From: an uncultured Planctomycetota bacterium
GTDB taxonomy: Bacteria; Planctomycetota; PLA2; JAEUHO01
Reading direction: 5' to 3'
Length of the DNA stretch: 64,000 bases
NCBI GenBank assembly: GCA_963752285.1
Contig: CAVVXN010000005.1
Span: 832,001 to 896,000 of the forward strand
In this document: piece after piece, positions 16,015 to 54,852 of the stretch
Position numbering within the stretch: position 1 is the first letter of the stretch
Layout of the letters: every line of letters begins with the position of its first letter
Position numbers and translations under genes: made by a program
Notes under the pieces: model-generated
Database searches by the model: none
Seen by the model: the letters and a program-made list of their open reading frames with translations, nothing else
What the model was told of the DNA's origin: nothing

Positions 16015-17211
16015 TCAGGCGTCGGCCTGGAGGAGGAGGCCGGAGAGGTAGCGGCCCTCCGGGGCCGCCAGGAGCACGGGGTGGTCGGGTCCGGCGGACA
16101 GCTCCCGGAGCACGCGGAGGGGGCGGCGACACTCGCGCGCCGCGGAGGCGACCATCTCCGCGAGCCGAGACGCACCCAATGCGTGGGTGCACGAGAAGGT
16201 CGCCAGCAGGCCGTGCGGAGCGAGCCGGGTGAGCGCCTGCACGGTCAGGTCGCGCCACATCTTCGTCCCGGCCGCCGTGCGGGTCCGTCGCGGCAGGAGG
16301 TTCGGCGGGTCGAGCACGATCACGTCGAACACGCGATCCTCGTCCTTCAGCGCGCGGAGCGCCACGCGCACGTCCTCCACGCGGGTGGCCATCCGCGCGT
16401 CCACGCCGTTTCGCGCGGCGTTGTGGAGCGCGGTCTCGGCCTGGCGGGCCGACGACTCGACGAGGAGCGCCGATCGCGCGCCGGACCGGAGCGCCTGGAG
16501 CGAGAACCCGCCCGTACCCGCGAAGAGGTCCAGCACGTCGCGGCCCTTCGCGAGCGCGGCGACGACCCGTCGGTTCTCCCGCTGGTCGGCGTAGTGCCCG
16601 GTCTTCTGACCGTGGCGTGGGTCGATCTCGAGCTCCATGCCCTCCTCGCGTGCGATGACGCGCTCCGGCGCGGGCTCGCCCGCCTCGAAGGAGACGTCGG
16701 TCTCGAGGATCCCTTCCTCCGCCTCGAAGCCCCCCGCGCGCGCCACGAGCGAGCGCGCGCCCGACGACGAGAGGAGCAGGTCGGACAGCGCTCCGCGGCG
16801 CCGGTGCATCGCGGCCGTCGCGAACACCGCGACCAGGACGTCGCCCGCGCGGTCCACCACGAGCCCCGGCAGCCCGTCTCCCTCGGCGTGCACCAGACGG
16901 TAGGCGTTCGTCTCTGCGGGATCGGGAAACAGGGCGCGGCGCAGCGCGACGGCCCGCTCGACCCGATCTCGGAGCACGTCGAGCACGGGCGCGGCGCCCA
17001 GCGTCCGGTCGAAGAGGCGCACGCGGATCGCCGAGCCGCCCGAGAAGAAGCCGCGCCCGATCTCGCGGCCCTCGGCGTCGGCGACACGCACCACGTCCGG
17101 CTCGTCCGCGAGGGGGACGCCGTGGACCTCGGCGACGGACGACGCGTGGACCCAGGGGTGACCCGCCCACAGCGGACGAGCCCGGCCCTTCTGGACGACC
17201 ACGGTGCGCAT
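16015..17211 (-). CDS. rlmI: RlmI/RlmK-like class I SAM-dependent rRNA m5C methyltransferase
   Basis: GHPWV PUA domain, EGDGLPGLVVD, GQKTGHYADQRENR, VLDLFAGTGGF, LDPP, TFSC and DHPV...PEGRYL motifs. Confidence 0.88.
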   Translation of the reverse strand: MRTVVVQKGRARPLWAGHPWVHASSVAEVHGVPLADEPDVVRVADAEGREIGRGFFSGGSAIRVRLFDRTLGAAPVLDVLRDRVERAVALRRALFPDPAETNAYRLVHAEGDGLPGLVVDRAGDVLVAVFATAAMHRRRGALSDLLLSSSGARSLVARAGGFEAEEGILETDVSFEAGEPAPERVIAREEGMELEIDPRHGQKTGHYADQRENRRVVAALAKGRDVLDLFAGTGGFSLQALRSGARSALLVESSARQAETALHNAARNGVDARMATRVEDVRVALRALKDEDRVFDVIVLDPPNLLPRRTRTAAGTKMWRDLTVQALTRLAPHGLLATFSCTHALGASRLAEMVASAARECRRPLRVLRELSAGPDHPVLLAAPEGRYLSGLLLQADA

Positions 17212-17255
17212 CGGGCCCAGCATGACACCGGCGGCGTCCGAAGGCTCCCCGCGCG

Positions 17256-17732
17256 TCAGCGCATCGCGTCGCGCATGCGGCGCCGGTCGTCCTTCTCGCG
17301 CTCGCGCGCCCGGTGGTCGGCTTTGCGGCGGCCCTGGGCGAGCGCGAGCTCCACCTTCACCCGGACGCCCTTGAAGTAGAGCGACAGCGGGATCATCGTC
17401 GTGCCTGCCGCCTCGAGGCCCTCCTCGATCGTCCTCAGCTCGCGGCGGTGGACCAGGCACTTGCGGGGGCGGTCGGGCTCGTGGCCGAAGCTCGCGGCCT
17501 GCGAGAGCGGAGGGATGTGCACCCCGTGGAGCCAGAGCTCGTCGTCGCGCAGGCGCGCATAGCCCTCGCGGATCGTGGCCCCGTTCTGTCGGAGCGAGCG
17601 CACCTCGCTGCCCTGGAGCACGAGGCCGGCCTCGACCTTGCCGAGCAGCAGGTAGTCGTGCCGCGCCCGGCGGTTCGTCGCCAGGACGCGACGACCGCCC
17701 TTCTCGTCGGACGCGGGGCTCGACTTCGTCAT
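17256..17732 (-). CDS. smpB: SsrA-binding protein SmpB
   Basis: NRRARHDY..EAGLVLQGSEVRSLR, HEPDRPRKCLVHRREL, PLSLYFK..KVELALAQGRRKADHR. Confidence 0.96.
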   Translation of the reverse strand: MTKSSPASDEKGGRRVLATNRRARHDYLLLGKVEAGLVLQGSEVRSLRQNGATIREGYARLRDDELWLHGVHIPPLSQAASFGHEPDRPRKCLVHRRELRTIEEGLEAAGTTMIPLSLYFKGVRVKVELALAQGRRKADHRAREREKDDRRRMRDAMR

Positions 17733-17755
17733 CGGCGTATCCTACGGGGCCCGAC

Positions 17756-18967
17756 ATGACCGCCCCCCGCCCGACGTCGATCGCTTCCGGGCCCCACCGA
17801 CGCGCGGCGGTCCGGGGGGGAGCCGGCGACCCGCGGTGGGCACCGCCCGTCCGCGCGCCCCGGCGTCCGTCCTCGACGGCGGGCTTGGGCACGGCGCTCG
17901 TGGCCCTCGCGCTGGCCGCCTGCCAGGGCGCCGGAGGCGGCGCGGCGGACGCGGCGCCGGCGCCGTGGCGTCCCGCGCCCCGCCTCGTGGGCGCACGACT
18001 TTTGGACTTCGCGGGCGTGTCGCCCGAGGCGCGCGGCTGGTCCCAGGTGGACGGCCTCTTCTGGGTACCGCGCGAGGAGGCCGGCTCCTGGGGACGCGGA
18101 CTCGTCCTCGTGAACGACGCGTGGACGCCGGCCGGCGAGGCACCGGCCCTCGCCACGTCGGCCGCGGACGGCTACCTGGTCCGCACGGACCACGTGAGCC
18201 TCCGCACGAACGCGCGCTGGCGGACGGGCGCCTCCCTCGCGCGCGCCGCCGAAGACCACGTGCGGCGCGTCTTCGCCGCCTGGGGCGACGCGCTCGACCT
18301 CCGGTTCCCGGACGGGCCGCTGCCTGTCGTCGTCCACGCGCGCCGCGCCGAGCTCGTTCGGGCTCTCGCGGGCGCCCTGCCGGAAGGTCCCGCGTACGGG
18401 GCGTTCTACGACGCACGCACCGGCGTGGTCCACGTGTGCGTCGAACCCGCGCCCGAGGGCGCGTTGCCCGTCGTGGCCGACCTCCGGCACGAGCTGACGC
18501 ATCAGATCCTCGATCTCTCGAGCCGGAGGTCGGGACTCGCCACGCCGCCCCCCCATCACCTCTGGCTCTGGGAGGGGTTCGCCGTGGCGAGCGAGACGCT
18601 CGGCGACACGGCCGGCGAGGACGCGGGCGGGCTCCGCCGGGCGCGGCTGTCGCTTCGCGCCCGCCGCGGCGAGCTCGAGCCCCTCTCGCGGCTCTTCCGC
18701 CTCGCTCCCGCCGAGTTCGAAGGCCGTCACTACGACGAGGCCGGCGCGCTCGTCTCCTTCCTCCTCGCGGACGGCGTGCCGGGCGGTCGGCGCGCGGTGC
18801 TCGACACGCTCGCCGACCTGCTCGCGGGACACGCGACCGCCGGCGACTTCGTGGGCCGCCTGGGCACCGCCCCCGCCGAGCTCGAGCGCCGCTGGCGCGC
18901 GAGCGGGACGACGGGCGCGCCACTCGCCACGGGTTCGCCCGCGGGGGGTGCGGAGGGGCGCGGCTGA
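17756..18967 (+). CDS. Putative lipoprotein with HExxH zinc-peptidase (DUF1570-like) domain; start uncertain
   Basis: Lipobox LAAC; LRHELTHQ...WLWEGFA gluzincin-like motif. Confidence 0.7.
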   Translation: MTAPRPTSIASGPHRRAAVRGGAGDPRWAPPVRAPRRPSSTAGLGTALVALALAACQGAGGGAADAAPAPWRPAPRLVGARLLDFAGVSPEARGWSQVDGLFWVPREEAGSWGRGLVLVNDAWTPAGEAPALATSAADGYLVRTDHVSLRTNARWRTGASLARAAEDHVRRVFAAWGDALDLRFPDGPLPVVVHARRAELVRALAGALPEGPAYGAFYDARTGVVHVCVEPAPEGALPVVADLRHELTHQILDLSSRRSGLATPPPHHLWLWEGFAVASETLGDTAGEDAGGLRRARLSLRARRGELEPLSRLFRLAPAEFEGRHYDEAGALVSFLLADGVPGGRRAVLDTLADLLAGHATAGDFVGRLGTAPAELERRWRASGTTGAPLATGSPAGGAEGRG

Positions 18968-18969
18968 CA

Positions 18970-19167
18970 GGCTCCGGCGCTGCGCGGGGATCGCGGGGAG
19001 GGCGGGCGCGGGCGTGGGGGGCGGGCTCCCCCGCTGCGCGGGGATCGCGGGGGCGCGGCGGGCGGGCTCCCCCGCTGCGCGGGGATCGCGCGGGCGCCGC
19101 GGGCGGGCTCCCCCGCTGCGCGGGGATCGCGGGGGCGCCGCGGGCGGGCTCCCCCGCTGCGCGGGGA
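18970..19167. repeat. 41-bp-period palindromic tandem repeat (4 copies plus 1 degenerate)
   Basis: Core GCGGGCTCCCCCGCTGCGCGGGGA(TCGCG) at 19021, 19062, 19103 and 19144, degenerate copy at about 18970; 12-nt near-identical linkers. Confidence 0.9.
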
Positions 19168-19186
19168 CGGGGGGACGCGGAGCGTA

Positions 19187-19972
19187 GTGGAGGCGGGGGA
19201 GGCTCCCCCGCGGGGTGGGGCGCGCGGGCGAATGGGGCGACGGCGTACGGAGGCGGGGGGTGGGCGTTTGGCCCTTGGGCGCGGGGGAGCATTACTTCTC
19301 TCCCCCCGCCTCCTGGATCGGGGCTCGCGGTCGAGCGGGGCTTGGCGTACGTCCGGACCTTGTGATCGACGGTGGGTGGTGGGGATGGAGGCGGGGGAGG
19401 CTCCCCCGCGGGGTGGGGCGCGCGGGCGAATGGGGCGACGGCGTACGGAGGCGGGGCGTGGGCGTTTGGCCCTTGGGCGCGGGGGAGCATTACTTCTCTC
19501 CCCCCGCCTCTTGCATCGGGGCTCGCGGCCGAGCGGGGCTTGGCGTACGTCCGGACCTTGTGATCGACGGTGGGTGGTGGAGATGGAGGCGGGGGAGGCT
19601 CCCCCGCGGGGTGGGGCGCGCGGGCGAATGGGGCGACGGCGTACGGAGGCGGGGCGTGGGCGTTTGGCCCTTGGGCGCGGGGGAGCATTACTTCTCTCCC
19701 CCCGCCTCTTGCATCGGGGCTCGCGGTCGAGCGGGGCTTGGCGTACGGACGGGCCTTGTGATCGACGGTGGGTGGTGGAGATGGAGGCGGGGGAGGCTCC
19801 CCCGCGGGGTGGGGCGCGCGGGCGAATGGGGCGACGGCGTACGGAGGCGGGGGGTGGGCGTTTGGCCCTTGGGCGCGGGGGAGCATTACTTCTCTCCCCC
19901 CGCCTCCTGGATCGGGGCTCGCGGTCGAGCGGGGCTTGGCGTACGGACGGGCCTTGAGATCGACGGTGGGTG
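19187..19972 (-). repeat. tmRNA-linked tandem repeat: four ~198-bp units, each carrying a copy of the ssrA 3' end
   Basis: Units start (plus strand) at 19187, 19385, 19583 and 19781 (last 192 bp). Each begins with TGGAGGCGGGGG, as does the ssrA 3' end at 19974. Confidence 0.95.
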
Positions 19973-20330
19973 GTGGAGGCGGGGGGAATTGCACCCCCGT
20001 CCCGAGATGGGTGAGCGGGCGTCACTACGCGCGTAGTCCGAGGTTTGAGGTCTCGCTCTCGGGGACGCCCTCGGACGGGCTTCCCTTCGGGCCAGCGGGT
20101 GAAGTCTCGCTGCCCCTTCGACCCGCGGCGAAGGGGCGGCCAGCCTGCGTTATGGCGGCCGTACGTCCCCCGCAGACAGAGGGACGGGGCCGCGCCACCT
20201 GACTAGGCGGCGAGAGCGTAGTTGCTGTTGGCAACTGAGGTTCCAGGGGAGGTTGTTGACGAGGTCCGACCCTGGGTACCCCGGCGCGCGACGCAAACCC
20301 ACCGACATCCGGTCGATTCTGTTCGCCCCC
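19971..20330 (-). ncRNA. ssrA: tmRNA (transfer-messenger RNA); tag peptide ANSNYALAA at 20203-20232
   Basis: 5' GGGGGCGAACAGAATCGAC; 3' GGACGGGGGTGCAATTCCCCCCGCCTCCACCA; internal GCC AAC AGC AAC TAC GCT CTC GCC GCC TAG; smpB 2.2 kb away. Confidence 0.96.
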
Positions 20331-20391
20331 ACGCGGAGCGTTCGTCCGGTGCCGGGGCCGCGGCTCGCGGTCCCGACTGCCAAAGAGCGAC

Positions 20392-20943
20392 CTACATCCT
20401 ACCCCGCGACGGGTGGTCGCGGCTCGCGGGCTCTGCGACGAGGGCCACCTGGAGGGCGTCGGCCGCCGCCGCGTCGTACGCCACCAAAAGCACGCGCCGG
20501 GGATGATCGTGCTCGTCGAGGAACGCGCGGACCGCGCCGACCGCGACGCGCGCGGCGTCGGACGCCGGGTACCCGAACACGCCCGTCGAGATCGCGGGGA
20601 ACGCGATCGTCTCCAGGGTCTTCGCCCGGGCGAGCTCGAGCGACCGCCGGTAGCACGAGGCCAGAAGCTCCGCCTCGCCGCGGGCTCCGCCCTGCCACAC
20701 CGGCCCGACCGCGTGGATCACCCACCGCGCCCGGAGCGCGAACCCGGGCGTCATCCGCGCATCCCCCACCGGGCACGGCGCGGCCCGCGCGCACGCCGCC
20801 CTGAGGTCCCGTCCCGCCGCGCGGTGGATCGCCCCGCACACGCCACCGCCCGGCGCGAGCGCCTCGTTCGCCGCGTTGACGATCGCGTCCACGTCGAGCC
20901 GCGTGATGTCACCGATCACGACCTCGACGCGCTCGTCGTTCAC
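20392..20943 (-). CDS. ymdB: Macro domain O-acetyl-ADP-ribose deacetylase (YmdB-like)
   Basis: GDITRLDVDAIVNAAN..GGGVCGAIH, VIHAVGP and AFPAISTGVFGYP motifs. Confidence 0.93.
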   Translation of the reverse strand: MNDERVEVVIGDITRLDVDAIVNAANEALAPGGGVCGAIHRAAGRDLRAACARAAPCPVGDARMTPGFALRARWVIHAVGPVWQGGARGEAELLASCYRRSLELARAKTLETIAFPAISTGVFGYPASDAARVAVGAVRAFLDEHDHPRRVLLVAYDAAAADALQVALVAEPASRDHPSRGRM

Positions 20944-23030
20944 GTCTCGGACTCCTTCTTGTGCTCGAGCCTCGTGGGCGCCGCCGCCCCCGAGGGGGGC
21001 GCGGCGAGCGCCTCCTCGCAGCGTAGCGCGAGGGTGCGGGCCGCTTCGTCGCCGGGCAGCGTGCGTGCGACCTCGAGCGCCTCGGCCGGGCGTCCCGCCT
21101 GGAGCAGGTCCAAGGCCCGCTCGAACGTCCGCGCCGCGTCGAGGGTCGCCGCGTCCACCGCCCCCACGCGGCCGAGCAGCTCGTGCACGTGGACCGCACC
21201 GTGCCGCCCCTTCACGGCGACGTGGTCGATCCGCCGCCAGAGGAAGTCCGGGCCGGCCGCCTCGACGGTGGCCGTCGGGGCGAGGACCGTCGTCCCGAAG
21301 TGGCCGTTCGCCCCCTCGAGCCGGCTCGCGAGGTTCATCGTGTCGCCGAGCGCCGTGTAGTGCAGTCGCGACGGCGAGCCGACGTTCCCGACGACCACCG
21401 GCCCGGTCGCGAGGCCGAACCGCGTGGGGAGCGGCGGACGACCTGCGGCCTCGAAGTCCGCGTTCAGCCGGTCGAGCCGCGCGCGGCAGGCAAGGACCGC
21501 GGACGTCGCGCGCGCGGCGTGGGCCGGCTCGGGACGGGGCGCGCCCCAGAACGCCACGATCGCGTCGCCGACGAGCTTGTCGATCGTCGCGCCCTCGTCA
21601 CGGAGGGTGTCGATCATCGCGCCGAAGTACTCGCTCATGTGCGAGACGAGGTCGGCGGGCGTCATCTGCTCTGCGATCCCGGTGAAGCCGCGTACGTCGG
21701 TGAAGAGCACCGTGGCCTCGACCGTGCGACCTCCGATGCGCGCGGCCTCGCCGCGGTCGAGCAGGTCGCGCACGACGTCCGTGGGCACGTACCGGGCGAA
21801 CGAGTCGAGGGCCTGGCGCATGCGCTCCTGGGCGTCGTAGAGCCCTTGGACCTCGCGGATCCGGCTCGGCGGATGCGGGTGGGGCGCCGTGTCGAGACGT
21901 CGGATCCGGTCGCTCTGCTCCGCGAGATCCTCGAGGGGCCGACCGTACCGACGTGCGAGCGCGAGGGCGAGCCCCGCCGCGAAGCCCAGCGCGAGGACGC
22001 CGAGCCCGAGGACCACGAGGCGGTTCTTGCGCGCCGGGCCCAGGAAGTCCTCGAGCGGCGCGGCGATCCCGACGTCGAAGCGCGTGTCCTCGTCGAGGGC
22101 CAACGCGCGGCACTCGCCCCACCACGTCGCGCCCTCGCTCTCGAACGCGAACGGCGCGCCGCCGCGGCCGACGCCGTCGCGGAGGAGCCGCGCCGCGGTC
22201 GGGAGGCGCAGGTCCTCGAGCGGGGTCAGGATCGCCGCCTCGCGCGCACCGGGGTCGGCGAAGCGATCGGCCCGCGGCAGCCCCACCACGCGGTGCTCGG
22301 GCTCCGTGGCGACGATCGCGAACCCGCCCGCGCTCACGTCCAGGGTGGTCGTGAACGTCGAGAGGTCGCCGAGGAGCACGTCGAACGCCACCACGAACGT
22401 CGCGCCGTCCGGCCCGTTCACCGTGAGGGACGCCGTGAGCCCGGGCCGCTTCGACGTGAAGAAGACGTACGGCTCCGTCCAGCGCACCCGCGCCGCACCC
22501 GCGGTCCGGTACCACGGCCGCGTGCGGGGGTCGAAGTCCGAGTCCTCGAACCAGGGCTCGGCGGCCGCGCCCGCGCCGAGACGGTGGAACCGCGCCCGAC
22601 GTCCCCACGTCGTGGGATCGACCTCGCGCACGAGCCACCCCTCGCCCTCGCGCAGGAACGACACGCCGCCGCCCTCGGCGTCGCCGGTCAAGAACCCCGC
22701 GACCTGGGGCAGACCTTCGAGCACCGGGACCACGACGGGCTCGAGGCACGTGGCGCCGCGGCACCGGATCGTCCCGTTCTTCGCCCAGCGGCCGACCACG
22801 GCGAGCTGGTCCGTGATCGGGTCGAAGAGGCGATGCAGGCGGGTTTCCGTGCGGTCGGCCAGCGTGCGCGTGAAGCCGCGCACCACCTCCTGGACCGTGT
22901 CGCGCGCCCCCACCCCCATCACGAAGAGGATCGCGCCCGAGAGGAGCAAGATCAGCACCAGGAGCGAGCGGAGGAGGCTCCGCCGCATCGGGACGGTGCC
23001 GCGGCGAAGGAACGCCAGGGGTGACGGCAT
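20940..23030 (-). CDS. Class III adenylate cyclase with Cache-like sensor and HAMP domain
   Basis: TM, then DPRTRPWY (Cache), TM and HAMP; LFTDVRGFT, DKLVGDA and YTALGDTMNLASRLE motifs. Confidence 0.93.
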   Translation of the reverse strand: MPSPLAFLRRGTVPMRRSLLRSLLVLILLLSGAILFVMGVGARDTVQEVVRGFTRTLADRTETRLHRLFDPITDQLAVVGRWAKNGTIRCRGATCLEPVVVPVLEGLPQVAGFLTGDAEGGGVSFLREGEGWLVREVDPTTWGRRARFHRLGAGAAAEPWFEDSDFDPRTRPWYRTAGAARVRWTEPYVFFTSKRPGLTASLTVNGPDGATFVVAFDVLLGDLSTFTTTLDVSAGGFAIVATEPEHRVVGLPRADRFADPGAREAAILTPLEDLRLPTAARLLRDGVGRGGAPFAFESEGATWWGECRALALDEDTRFDVGIAAPLEDFLGPARKNRLVVLGLGVLALGFAAGLALALARRYGRPLEDLAEQSDRIRRLDTAPHPHPPSRIREVQGLYDAQERMRQALDSFARYVPTDVVRDLLDRGEAARIGGRTVEATVLFTDVRGFTGIAEQMTPADLVSHMSEYFGAMIDTLRDEGATIDKLVGDAIVAFWGAPRPEPAHAARATSAVLACRARLDRLNADFEAAGRPPLPTRFGLATGPVVVGNVGSPSRLHYTALGDTMNLASRLEGANGHFGTTVLAPTATVEAAGPDFLWRRIDHVAVKGRHGAVHVHELLGRVGAVDAATLDAARTFERALDLLQAGRPAEALEVARTLPGDEAARTLALRCEEALAAPPSGAAAPTRLEHKKESET

Positions 23031-53515: not shown

Positions 53516-53634
53516 CCCGTCCTTGTAGCCCCTCGTCCGCCCGCCCGAAACCTCGGCGACCCGCAGGGGTACGGCCTGTCGAGAGCACGGTCGCCCCGCC
53601 CCCGCGGGCGCTCGGCGACCCGGAGGTGCCCGCC

Positions 53635-54852
53635 GTGCCCACCCGCCTCGCGTCGAAGGCCGCGCTCGCGCACCTGGCCCGGCGCGCGGGCTTTGGTCCG
53701 GACCTCGCCACGTGGGGGGAACGCGCCGGCGACGATCCCGACGCGGCCCTCCGGGCGGTCCTCGCGTCGCTGGGGACGCCGGCGGCCGGGGCGCCCGCAG
53801 CTTCGACCTCCGAGGAAGCGGACTTCGATCCCTACGCGCCGGCGGCGATCCAGACGCGCGCGCTCTCGTCGATGCTTTGGAGCCCCGCGCCGCTTCGCGA
53901 GCGGCTCGCGCTCGTCTGGCACGACCACTTCGCGACGAGCGACGCGAAGGTCCGCGACCCCGGCGCGATGTGGCGGCAGTGGCGCCTCCTTCACGCGCGC
54001 GGATCCGGGCGGCTCGAGGCGCTCGTCGTTGGGCTGCTCGAGGACGTCGCGATGCTCCGCTGGCTCGACGGCGACGCGAACCGGAAGGGTCAGCCCAACG
54101 AGAACCTCGCACGCGAGCTGCTGGAGCTCTTCCTCCTCGGGCGCGGGCGCTACGACGAGCACGACGTGCGCGAGGTGGCCCGCGCCCTCACGGGCGCGAC
54201 GACGAGGGGCGGCGCGTACGCGTTCGACCCCGCGCTCCACGACGACGGCGAGAAGACCGTACTCGGTGCGCGCGGACGCCTGGACGCCGCGGGCGTCGTG
54301 CGCCTCCTCGTCCACTCGGACGCCTGTCGCCGCCACGTCGCGCGGCGGCTCCTCGCGTCGTTCGTCACGCCAGCGCCGGACGAGGCCGACGTCGTTCGCG
54401 TCGCGCGCCGCCTCGCACAGAGCGACGGCGACGTCGGAGCGGGGCTCGCCGCGGTGTTCGAGCCGGACCATTTCTTCCGGCGCGAGCACGCACACACGCT
54501 CGTGCGGGGCCCGGTCGAGACCCTGGTGGCCGCACTCCGCGCGGCGGGCGCGCGCGAGGTGCCCTCCTGGGCGCACGCCGTTCTCGCCCGCGCCGGGCAG
54601 ACGCTCTTCCGACCGCCCTCGGTCAAAGGCTGGCCTGCGGGCGCACGCTGGCTCACGACGGCCACCACGGTCGCGCGGGTGGACCTCGCGTCGCGCGTCG
54701 CGGACGGCGTGGCGGACGGCGACGCCGACCAGGTCGTCGAGACCGCGTACGCGGGCGACGTCCCCTCGTCGGTCGCGCGGGTGCTTCGCGGCGTGCGCGG
54801 CCGCCGCCGCGTCGCGATCGCGCTCGCCGCGCCGGAGTTCCAGGTCGCATGA
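53635..54852 (+). CDS. DUF1800 domain-containing protein (copy 1)
   Basis: HLARRAGFG, LRERLALVWHDHFATS, PNENLARELLELF and PPSVKGW motifs; GGAGG RBS. Confidence 0.92.
   Translation: MPTRLASKAALAHLARRAGFGPDLATWGERAGDDPDAALRAVLASLGTPAAGAPAASTSEEADFDPYAPAAIQTRALSSMLWSPAPLRERLALVWHDHFATSDAKVRDPGAMWRQWRLLHARGSGRLEALVVGLLEDVAMLRWLDGDANRKGQPNENLARELLELFLLGRGRYDEHDVREVARALTGATTRGGAYAFDPALHDDGEKTVLGARGRLDAAGVVRLLVHSDACRRHVARRLLASFVTPAPDEADVVRVARRLAQSDGDVGAGLAAVFEPDHFFRREHAHTLVRGPVETLVAALRAAGAREVPSWAHAVLARAGQTLFRPPSVKGWPAGARWLTTATTVARVDLASRVADGVADGDADQVVETAYAGDVPSSVARVLRGVRGRRRVAIALAAPEFQVA

Follow-up and report, generated by a model that had tools for sequence, protein, structure and literature searches.

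Introduction

In Escherichia coli, non-coding units of about 100-200 nt stand directly behind stable-RNA genes and on the same strand. These tRNA-linked repeats (TLRs) have been known since 1978 (Egan and Landy 1978 and Rudd 1999, as cited in Stenum et al. 2021, PMC8144298). According to the part of that article available to us, there are 22 TLRs at ten loci, one to five at each, all in tRNA or rRNA operons, and the last 18-19 bp of a TLR are identical to the 3′ end of the RNA gene just before it. In the same account, TLRs are without known function, with the exception of RrA, RrB, and RrF, which follow 5S rRNA genes, are transcribed and processed, and bind Hfq and CsrA in vitro (PMC8144298). 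Here we describe an array of similar design behind the transfer-messenger RNA (tmRNA) gene, ssrA, of an uncultured Planctomycetota bacterium. It lies in a stretch of 64,000 nucleotides (the window, C5:832001-896000) and consists of four 198-bp units, each of which rebuilds the 3′ end of the tmRNA.

Tandem structures have also been described behind ssrA itself. In Dehalococcoides, many islands lie in tandem downstream of ssrA, each bounded by a 20-bp repeat of ssrA's 3′ end (PMC3146451, in the portion available). The same portion describes islands that carry genes and serine recombinase modules, extend up to 100 kb past ssrA, and are never duplicated within a strain, and it includes some segments that lack an integration module or integrase of their own. 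The array in the window differs from these islands in that it is made of gene-less 198-bp copies of one sequence, holds an inverted copy of its target, and has no recombinase within 64 kb. Another comparison is offered by the arrays of repetitive extragenic palindromes (REPs) and bacterial interspersed mosaic elements (BIMEs), which, like the array described here, are GC-rich hairpin repeats standing in tandem in intergenic DNA behind genes. Unlike REPs, which are dispersed in many copies, the 198-bp unit is private to one locus and copies the end of its host gene.

Results

Four 198-bp units directly behind the tmRNA gene

The genome to which the window belongs (G000; 4.64 Mb in 5 contigs, 73% GC) has its tmRNA gene on the minus strand at 19971..20330 of the window. 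The gene is full length with an encoded CCA end (Rfam RF00023, 106.2 bits against a gathering score of 47, model positions 1-374). It closes with ...GGGGGTGCAATTCCCCCCGCCTCCACCA, and its tag, read by eye, is ANSNYALAA. ARAGORN calls a truncated gene of 200 nt with a wrong 23-residue tag at 19971-20170, where Rfam gives the full 360 nt.

Four 198-bp units follow head to tail on the same strand, from the base right after the tmRNA CCA (19179-19970). Unit 1 (19773..19970) starts at the first base past the CCA and is followed by unit 2 (19575..19772), unit 3 (19377..19574), and unit 4 (19179..19376), all on the minus strand. The first three were delimited by Tandem Repeats Finder (TRF), a genome search, and unit alignment, and the fourth by sequence reading and unit alignment. 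TRF reports a period of 198 with 4.0 copies and 97% matches over 19188-19978, and a second repeat search gave the same register. A search of the whole G000 genome returned the four copies, at 96-100% identity, and nothing more above chance. The four near-identical units after the ssrA CCA end had been noticed in a first-pass annotation made from the letters alone, and Rfam, TRF, and the genome search agree on them. Ten substitutions distinguish the units in a mosaic fashion, some states being common to units 1 and 4 and others to units 3 and 4, which argues against a collapsed or invented repeat.

Each unit closes by rebuilding the tmRNA end. Units 1 and 2 end in CCCCCGCCTCCATCTCCACCA, unit 3 in ...CCATCCCCACCA, and unit 4 in ...CCTCCACTA, and the general end of units 1-3 can be written CCCCCGCCTCCATC(T/C)CCACCA; sequence reading and the unit alignment bear out the unit and tmRNA endings given in the first-pass annotation. 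Compared with the tmRNA 3′ end, CCCCCCGCCTCCACCA, the unit ends (CCCCCGCCTCCA-TCTCCA-CCA) have 12-13 identical nt plus CCACCA, with a 6-nt insertion between. Unit 4 carries the tmRNA-end copy CCCCCGCCTCCAC, after which the DNA departs from the repeat (TACGC...). Just 5′ of the rebuilt end lies a hairpin, GCGGGGGAG CC TCCCCCGC, at 19193..19211 (minus strand) in unit 4 and at the same spot in every unit. It had been noted at this place as GCGGGGGAG/CTCCCCCGC and described as T-stem-like. The hairpin is real and its stem is common to the tmRNA T-arm, but the loop has 2-5 nt and is not the 7-nt T-loop.

Contigs from four public DNA runs were short and covered the array only in its first 106 nt. 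One public-run contig of 186 nt joins the tmRNA 3′ end to unit 1 (19865-20050, one difference); its run is possibly the source sample of the window, and the contig is therefore not independent support. A metagenome scan with the 19-mer that spans the junction of tmRNA end and unit gave 13 loci, none of them beside a tRNA or tmRNA gene and all chance matches.

Inverted and direct copies of the tmRNA end within the unit

The tmRNA 3′ end is also present within the unit in inverted form. In unit 1, GGAGGCGGGGGGA (19895..19907, minus strand) is the perfect complement of TCCCCCCGCCTCC at the tmRNA 3′ end, a match of 13 nt reached in 0 of 2000 shuffles. The inverted copy occupies unit positions 64-76 and sits 198, 396, and 594 nt lower in units 2-4; in units 2 and 3 it starts with AGAGG, which leaves 11 nt perfect. 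Together with the CTCCCCCGCGCC that follows it, it forms a hairpin. An internal direct copy of the tmRNA end (CCCCCCGCCTCC G; 19842..19854, minus strand; 12-nt match, 11/2000 shuffles) opens the second ~99-nt half of unit 1. The two halves of the unit align with a z score of 2.8, which 3 of 500 shuffles reach, and TRF finds a sub-period of 95 nt with 56% matches inside the unit. It seems that two ~99-nt modules, each closing with an inverted/direct hairpin, make up the 198-bp unit as a dimer.

The tmRNA loci of G000 and 31 relatives (32 in all) were compared. A hairpin of inverted and direct copies lies 65-90 nt after the tmRNA in three of them, namely in G000, in its sister species of the same genus (G001), and in a species of another genus (G009). 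In G001 and G009, it is a 12-bp hairpin composed of (G/A)GAGGCGGGGGG, an A/T-containing loop of 10-13 nt, and CCCCCGCCTCCACC, and its 3′ strand is the tmRNA end. The hairpin is inside the repeated unit in G000; the array begins at the 3′ strand of the hairpin in G001 and just past the hairpin in G009. The same three genomes have the unusual T-loop TGCAATT in their tmRNA (window 19971-20003 in G000; loci L044 and L043 for G001 and G009), and at the remaining 29 loci the T-loop is TTCGATT or something close to it. One cause could be an exchange of sequence between the tmRNA gene and its trailer copies. When the hairpin pattern was used to scan the genome collection, it was found at 6 loci, only one of which is tmRNA-linked, that of G009.

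A full acceptor/T-arm minihelix with a free CCA is found only in the tRNA-Ala unit of G001 (39 bits to the tmRNA model). The tmRNA hairpins of G001 and G009 contain a minihelix with ACC, and the G000 unit contains none. The idea of a chargeable (aminoacylatable) minihelix was dropped: position 3:70 is A-U and not the G-U required for charging with alanine, and the G000 hairpin is without a free CCA. A stand-alone perfect acceptor/T-arm minihelix, GGAGGCG GGGGG TTCGATC CCCCC CGCCTCC, was seen in a record of an uncultured Thermoleophilia (L070 1501-1530). It lies ~130 nt behind a tRNA-Ala(tgc) gene, and its sequence is that of a tmRNA-type end and not that of the tRNA.

Arrays behind the tmRNA genes of related genomes

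The first-pass annotation had suggested looking for the unit elsewhere in the genome and in relatives. In G000, it is confined to the four copies at this locus; among the 40 relatives searched, no DNA match to the 198-bp unit was found, although the tmRNA genes of G001 and G009 bear arrays of similar period and other sequence. Behind the G001 tmRNA stand 4.7 copies of a 195-bp unit unrelated in sequence to that of G000, and behind the G009 tmRNA 2.5 copies of a 196-bp unit. Most of the relatives are fragmented assemblies, the six most contiguous having 1-40 contigs. Several contigs of the fragmented ones stop a few hundred bases past the tmRNA, which is to be expected of such repeats and proves nothing.

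A family of arrays behind tRNA genes

Tandem arrays with a period of at least 90 bp were collected with TRF from the whole G000 genome. Five of the 34 lie at the 3′ end of a tRNA or tmRNA gene, compared with ~0.28 expected (~18-fold). A second copy of the gene's last 21 nt occurs within 1.5 kb downstream of 4 of the 64 tRNA/tmRNA genes and upstream of 0 of the 64; the tmRNA gene escapes this test because of the 6-nt insertion in its copies. By TRF, the tRNA-Met array has three copies of 180 bp (C5:242715-243286), the tRNA-Val array five of 149 bp (C5:1143000-1143754), and the tRNA-Pro(cgg) array one 209-bp unit and then 2.7 copies of 444 bp (C5:2005980-2007287). The end of tRNA-Pro(ggg) recurs just once, 418 nt behind the gene (C4 ~53630-54046).

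The Met, Val, and Pro arrays all follow the pattern O-(X-O)n, with O standing for the tRNA's last 26-32 nt, from T-arm to CCA. The Val array terminates within a T-loop copy, and one Pro unit is of the 209-nt type with an insert of ~240 nt. A fourth, solitary Met-type unit (C5:241238-241357, L091 1501-1620; 134.8 bits) is found 1.36 kb past the Met array. The DNA between the two is, by eye, metallophosphoesterase-like on the opposite strand (GNHD motif), with no Pfam match. The tmRNA array shares with the tRNA-linked arrays of G000 and its order the O-(X-O)n layout, the unit length, the GC-rich hairpins, and often the antisense copy, and the tRNA-linked arrays, like the tmRNA array, have no recombinase nearby. 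Unlike the tmRNA array, the tRNA-linked units copy the whole T-arm and acceptor strand (26-32 nt), and the Met array is kept between species.

In G001, there are arrays of three 184-bp copies at tRNA-Ala(GGC) and of 2.8 183-bp copies at tRNA-Met. The Met arrays of G001 and G000 are homologous (77% over 545 nt). The Met unit core is identical at 102 of 124 positions (82%), about as the tmRNAs of the two species are (80%); over the unit's opening 60 nt, only 39 of 65 positions agree. The array is therefore older than the split of the two species. Within each genome the Met-unit cores are nearly identical, and the rebuilt end of the units tracks the T-stem of the genome's own tRNA, GTTGG/CCAAC in G000 and GGTGG/CCACC in G001. 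The Met array undergoes concerted evolution with the 3′ end of its tRNA gene, and the unit core looks constrained. A cobalamin riboswitch match (50.8 bits) was seen upstream of the G001 tRNA-Ala locus (L045 563-712).

The Met units of both genomes and the Ala unit of G001 are clearly related (z about 12) and have in common the blocks TGGGGTAGCG, GGAGGGGGCGGAGCCCCC, and CATGAYCCC and a GAAG-loop hairpin. The tRNA-linked core comprises GGGGTAG..., GTAGGGGG-loop-CCCCCT, and GAAG-loop hairpins, and is absent from the tmRNA unit. Two-sided changes that keep pairing are found in 15 of 54 predicted hairpin pairs, counted over only three sequences. A covariance model of the core (R1), built from tRNA-linked units and searched in 41 genomes, matches 11 of them, which belong to two families of the order; at the 10 loci inspected, the matches follow tRNA genes for Pro, Met, Ile, and Asp and often stand in tandem. 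Upstream of the core, many units hold an antisense copy of a part of their own tRNA's 3′ half, for example CCAACGACC in Met, GGACTCGAACC in Val, and GGATTCGAACCCCCG in Pro (G013). This segment is frequent, not universal. The proposal that GGGGTAG covaries with the acceptor strand of each tRNA was dropped, as own helices scored about the same as non-cognate ones; GGGGTAG is a motif of the family. In G015 (L061 1588-2000), three different elements stand one after another behind a tRNA-Val gene: one of 186 nt and one of 140 nt, both ending in the tRNA-Val 3′ end, and a truncated third. The first and third are diverged copies of each other.

Other arrays of the genome

The fifth array at a tRNA or tmRNA gene consists of two 101-bp copies behind tRNA-Ser(gct) (C1:97520-97720), is without a tRNA-end copy, and carries TTCGACTCCCGACCCRGATTTTCG. 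This motif also flanks, in inverted orientation, the sole Y1 transposase (PF01797) gene of the genome (C1:103535-103858; flanked region C1:102770-104190), ~6 kb off. The tRNA-Ser repeat and the transposase gene look like a pair of REPs and REP-associated tyrosine transposase (RAYT). For the tmRNA unit, a REP/RAYT origin was considered and rejected: the unit and its 41-bp neighbor, described below, are private to the locus, and the single Y1_Tnp gene is flanked by another motif. Hairpins of the G6/C6 type occur at only 10 sites in the G000 genome. No TLR-like copy was found behind its single 5S rRNA gene.

Arrays were also seen at apparent protein genes. A 92-bp x5.5 array (C5:2120195-2120702) runs from the end of an apparent ssb gene, named from its C-terminus by eye and not by search. 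Its units re-copy the last codons (...DDDIPF, stop) and end in CCACCATCCACCG, which resembles the tmRNA-unit junction CCACCACCCACCG. A 181-bp x3 array (99% alike; C1:756718-757252) starts from the stop codon of an apparent superoxide dismutase gene, a name given by reading only. An abundant family of tandem arrays of 97-111 bp built on GGGCTCGCGGGGCCGCCTTTGGCGGCGCCGCATCGCG is present at many G000 loci (e.g., C5:236596-237372 and C3:42634-43185).

Coding capacity, island signature, and RNA families

Four open reading frames (ORFs) of 256-750 aa span the array. None has a credible Pfam match, a lone AraC_binding line without a significant stretch being spurious, and the longest begins within the tmRNA gene. 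Codon-position GC is flat, at 0.70-0.79, in all six frames of the array, and the periods of sister arrays (149, 184, and 196) are not divisible by 3. The units do not have the look of protein-coding DNA.

The first-pass annotation saw no integrase near the array, and profile searches concur: none of the 12 tyrosine recombinase (PF00589) matches of the genome and not its one resolvase (PF00239; serine recombinase) match falls in the 64-kb window. Like an island, the unit is a segment between a rebuilt gene and a displaced direct repeat of that gene's 3′ end. Neither the 40 relatives nor other parts of the genome contain the unit; relatives bear other arrays at their tmRNA genes, so that no clean empty site was seen. 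In Rfam, the tmRNA end together with the inverted copy causes a sub-threshold "permuted tmRNA" match. Ten related loci gave no match to the RtT RNA family of Rfam (RF00391).

Comparison with the E. coli repeats

The first-pass annotation likened the array to the repeats behind E. coli tyrT. The likeness is apt, and they are the closest known analogue, with the same design. The K-12 tyrT locus has 3.1 copies of 178 bp, and its units contain small C-GAA-G hairpins as well as GGGGAAGGAT, which is complementary over 10 nt to ATCCTTCCCC in the end of tRNA-Tyr. The 198-bp unit likewise holds a complement of its host RNA's 3′ end. Like the E. coli TLRs (tyrT/tyrV rttR/RtT RNA; RrA/B/F), the array is non-coding, stands on the same strand directly behind a stable-RNA gene, and is built of units in the range of ~100-200 nt; the number per locus is within one to five (four here), each unit ends in a copy of the host RNA 3′ end, and there are several such loci in the genome. 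It differs in its host, the tmRNA not being among the hosts named in the available part of PMC8144298, in the shorter identity to the host end, which is broken by 6 nt, and in belonging to a high-GC Planctomycetota organism. The inverted copy right beside the direct copy as a simple hairpin and the dimer of ~99-nt modules also set it apart.

Local alignment of the tmRNA unit to two E. coli units stayed at chance level (z ≤1.0). At the level of motifs, 20 comparisons gave only two short similarities to E. coli units (z 5.2-5.6), too little for homology. The design is shared with the E. coli TLRs, and neither the sequences nor Rfam point to homology.

Surroundings of the tmRNA gene

Upstream of the tmRNA lies a gene for a macro-domain protein (20392..20943, minus strand; Pfam PF01661, E 4e-43). 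Directly after the 198-bp array comes the last part of the locus, an array of hairpins CCCCGC-GCA-GCGGGG (19006..19180, minus strand; 41 bp x4.3, from the repeat searches), whose motif is absent elsewhere in the G000 genome. It is followed by an ORF of 403 aa that is convergent with the tmRNA (17756..18967, plus strand) and has no Pfam match. The 41-bp array may be a terminator-like buffer ahead of this ORF. Homologs of the ORF are found in G001 and G009 (tblastn, 56% and 45% identity). The ORF is downstream of the tmRNA and convergent in G000; in G001 and G009, it is on the upstream side, in two different orientations (L044 3004-3930; L043 1-771). Across the three genomes, the gene orders indicate that the ssrA neighborhood has been repeatedly rearranged.

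Discussion

We read the array as a TLR-type trailer module of the tmRNA gene that was amplified by unequal recombination and is probably co-transcribed with the gene and cut at each rebuilt 3′ end. We put the chances of this whole package at about even. Nuclease processing at the rebuilt ends, taken alone and argued from analogy, is a more tentative proposition, and a rather doubtful one. The basic module would be an ssrA trailer of ~99 nt, made of a spacer and then a GC-rich hairpin of inverted and direct copies of the tmRNA 3′ end, and two diverged modules would have fused into one 198-bp unit in the G000 lineage. Amplification of the unit to four copies, and the likeness of these copies, would be due to unequal homologous recombination or replication slippage that involves the tmRNA's 3′ end along with the copies behind it; the mosaic variants, the fractional copy numbers, and the copy that co-varies with the tRNA point to growth of this kind. 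By analogy with E. coli RttR and RrA/B/F, RNA polymerase may read from ssrA on into the array, and the nucleases that form the tmRNA 3′ end may cut after each rebuilt end to give RNAs of ~200 nt (or ~100 nt). By the same analogy, the unit hairpins and the 41-bp array may serve as fail-safe transcription stops before the convergent gene. In E. coli, RttR and RrA/B/F are transcribed together with the RNA gene before them and processed to discrete RNAs. The first-pass annotation had offered three possibilities for the array: co-transcribed small RNAs released by tRNA-processing nucleases, a set of decoy or spare attachment sites, and a minimal non-autonomous element amplified in tandem. It did not mention the arrays at tRNA genes, those behind the tmRNA genes of two relatives, or the inverted copy.

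Several results weigh against this interpretation. The identity to the tmRNA end is shorter in the units than the 18-19 nt of E. coli or the 26-32 nt of the tRNA-linked arrays of G000, and the whole unit does not fold with unusual stability (z -1.4). An Rfam search of 17000-22000 with E up to 1 found no RtT or other family beyond tmRNA in the unit, and the covariance model of the tRNA-linked core does not match it. The tmRNA-linked units of G000, G001, and G009 cannot be aligned with one another, unlike the Met-linked arrays, and this is as compatible with the turnover of unconstrained DNA as with function. There is no array within 1.5 kb of the tmRNA in four of the six most contiguous relatives (G007, G013, G015, and G036). 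Of 14 unit types, only 6 have an antisense copy that beats every non-cognate comparison, and a cruder helix test on the GGGGTAG motif gave no difference between own and cross comparisons (means of 6.64 and 6.35). Finally, a promoter/terminator scan of 18600-20800 found none.

A rival reading is a neutral minisatellite, in which slippage or unequal crossing-over started from a short duplicate of the tmRNA end, of chance or ancient origin, and the functionless copies were homogenized by recombination. Intergenic tandem arrays are plentiful in this genome, with 34 of period 90 bp or more, some of them starting from the 3′ ends of the apparent ssb and sod genes; the unit is private to G000, arrays end arbitrarily (2.8, 3.0, 4.7, and 5.1 copies), the mosaic of unit variants is what recombination predicts, and the folding energy is unexceptional. 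Left unexplained are the enrichment at tRNA/tmRNA 3′ ends, the near-equal periods (195-198 bp) at the tmRNA in three species, the inverted-copy hairpin kept in these species, and the conserved, covarying cores of the related tRNA-linked units, and we hold a neutral origin to be improbable, though it deserves to be taken seriously. A trivial cause, namely a single unit wrongly expanded in assembly, would agree with the breaking of the public short-read contigs inside the repeat and with a copy number that comes from the assembly. It is very improbable in view of the ten mosaic substitutions, a genome in 5 contigs, and analogous arrays in two other contiguous assemblies; the public contig bridges the tmRNA into unit 1 as well, with the proviso on its source given above. 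Even harder to credit is a protein-coding gene with a 66-codon repeat. That 198 is divisible by 3 and that four long ORFs cross the array would favor it, and the flat codon-position GC, the lack of a credible Pfam match, the start of the longest ORF in the tmRNA gene, and the sister periods all speak against it.

It is also conceivable, if unlikely, that the array is the gene-less remnant of an integrative element, whose insertion rebuilt the tmRNA 3′ end and which lost all but its attachment (att) ends of ~200 bp before the remnant multiplied, either through a recombinase acting in trans or by att-att recombination. Such a remnant would correspond, without genes, to cis-mobilizable elements and to the Dehalococcoides ssrA islands, some of which are without an integration module in the available text of PMC3146451. 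Direct repeats of a tRNA/tmRNA 3′ end are the signature of these insertions, and several of the 12 PF00589 matches in G000 lie beside other tRNA genes (Arg, Asp, Met, SeC, and Asn). The serial, non-identical tRNA-Val elements of G015, the fourth Met unit set off by 1.36 kb of other DNA, the Pro unit with its ~240-nt insert, and the Val array ending inside a T-loop copy all speak for a remnant, as do the unrelated tmRNA-linked units of the three species and a gene order around the tmRNA that differs in all three. However, the 64-kb window has no recombinase, and no copy of the unit exists elsewhere in the genome or in the 40 relatives. Scars of att sites leave the inverted target copy, kept as a hairpin in three species, without an explanation. 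The Met core, 82% identical at the same locus and with compensatory hairpin changes, looks like vertical descent under constraint, and in the available part of PMC8144298 E. coli TLRs also stand behind 5S rRNA genes.

If the trailer-module interpretation is extended beyond this order, TLR-type modules may be an old and broadly distributed class, attached in distant phyla to stable-RNA genes (tRNA, 5S rRNA, and tmRNA) at their 3′ ends and defined not by sequence but by a design of opposed antisense and sense copies of the host 3′ end around small hairpins, with the antisense copy as a target-matching guide. We offer this as speculation and consider it improbable. Were it true, an antisense copy in RNA could pair with the 3′ half of the host RNA and control its maturation, or act as a decoy for the enzymes of tRNA/tmRNA ends. 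In single-stranded DNA, it could form a folded site that mimics the target duplex, by which the module is copied to, or kept at, the gene. The tmRNA case would then mean that the design follows the acceptor/T-arm end and not the identity of the tRNA.

Such arrays also matter for genome annotation: short-read assemblies break at them, right behind tmRNA and tRNA genes, and gene callers are misled by the spurious long ORFs that cross them. From a biological perspective, the TLR design is now seen far from the enterobacteria, on a tmRNA gene, and as a family within one genome. The E. coli TLRs have been without an accepted function or origin since 1978, and their nature now becomes a comparative problem, with varied hosts, varied copy numbers, and units that are conserved at some genes and replaced at others.

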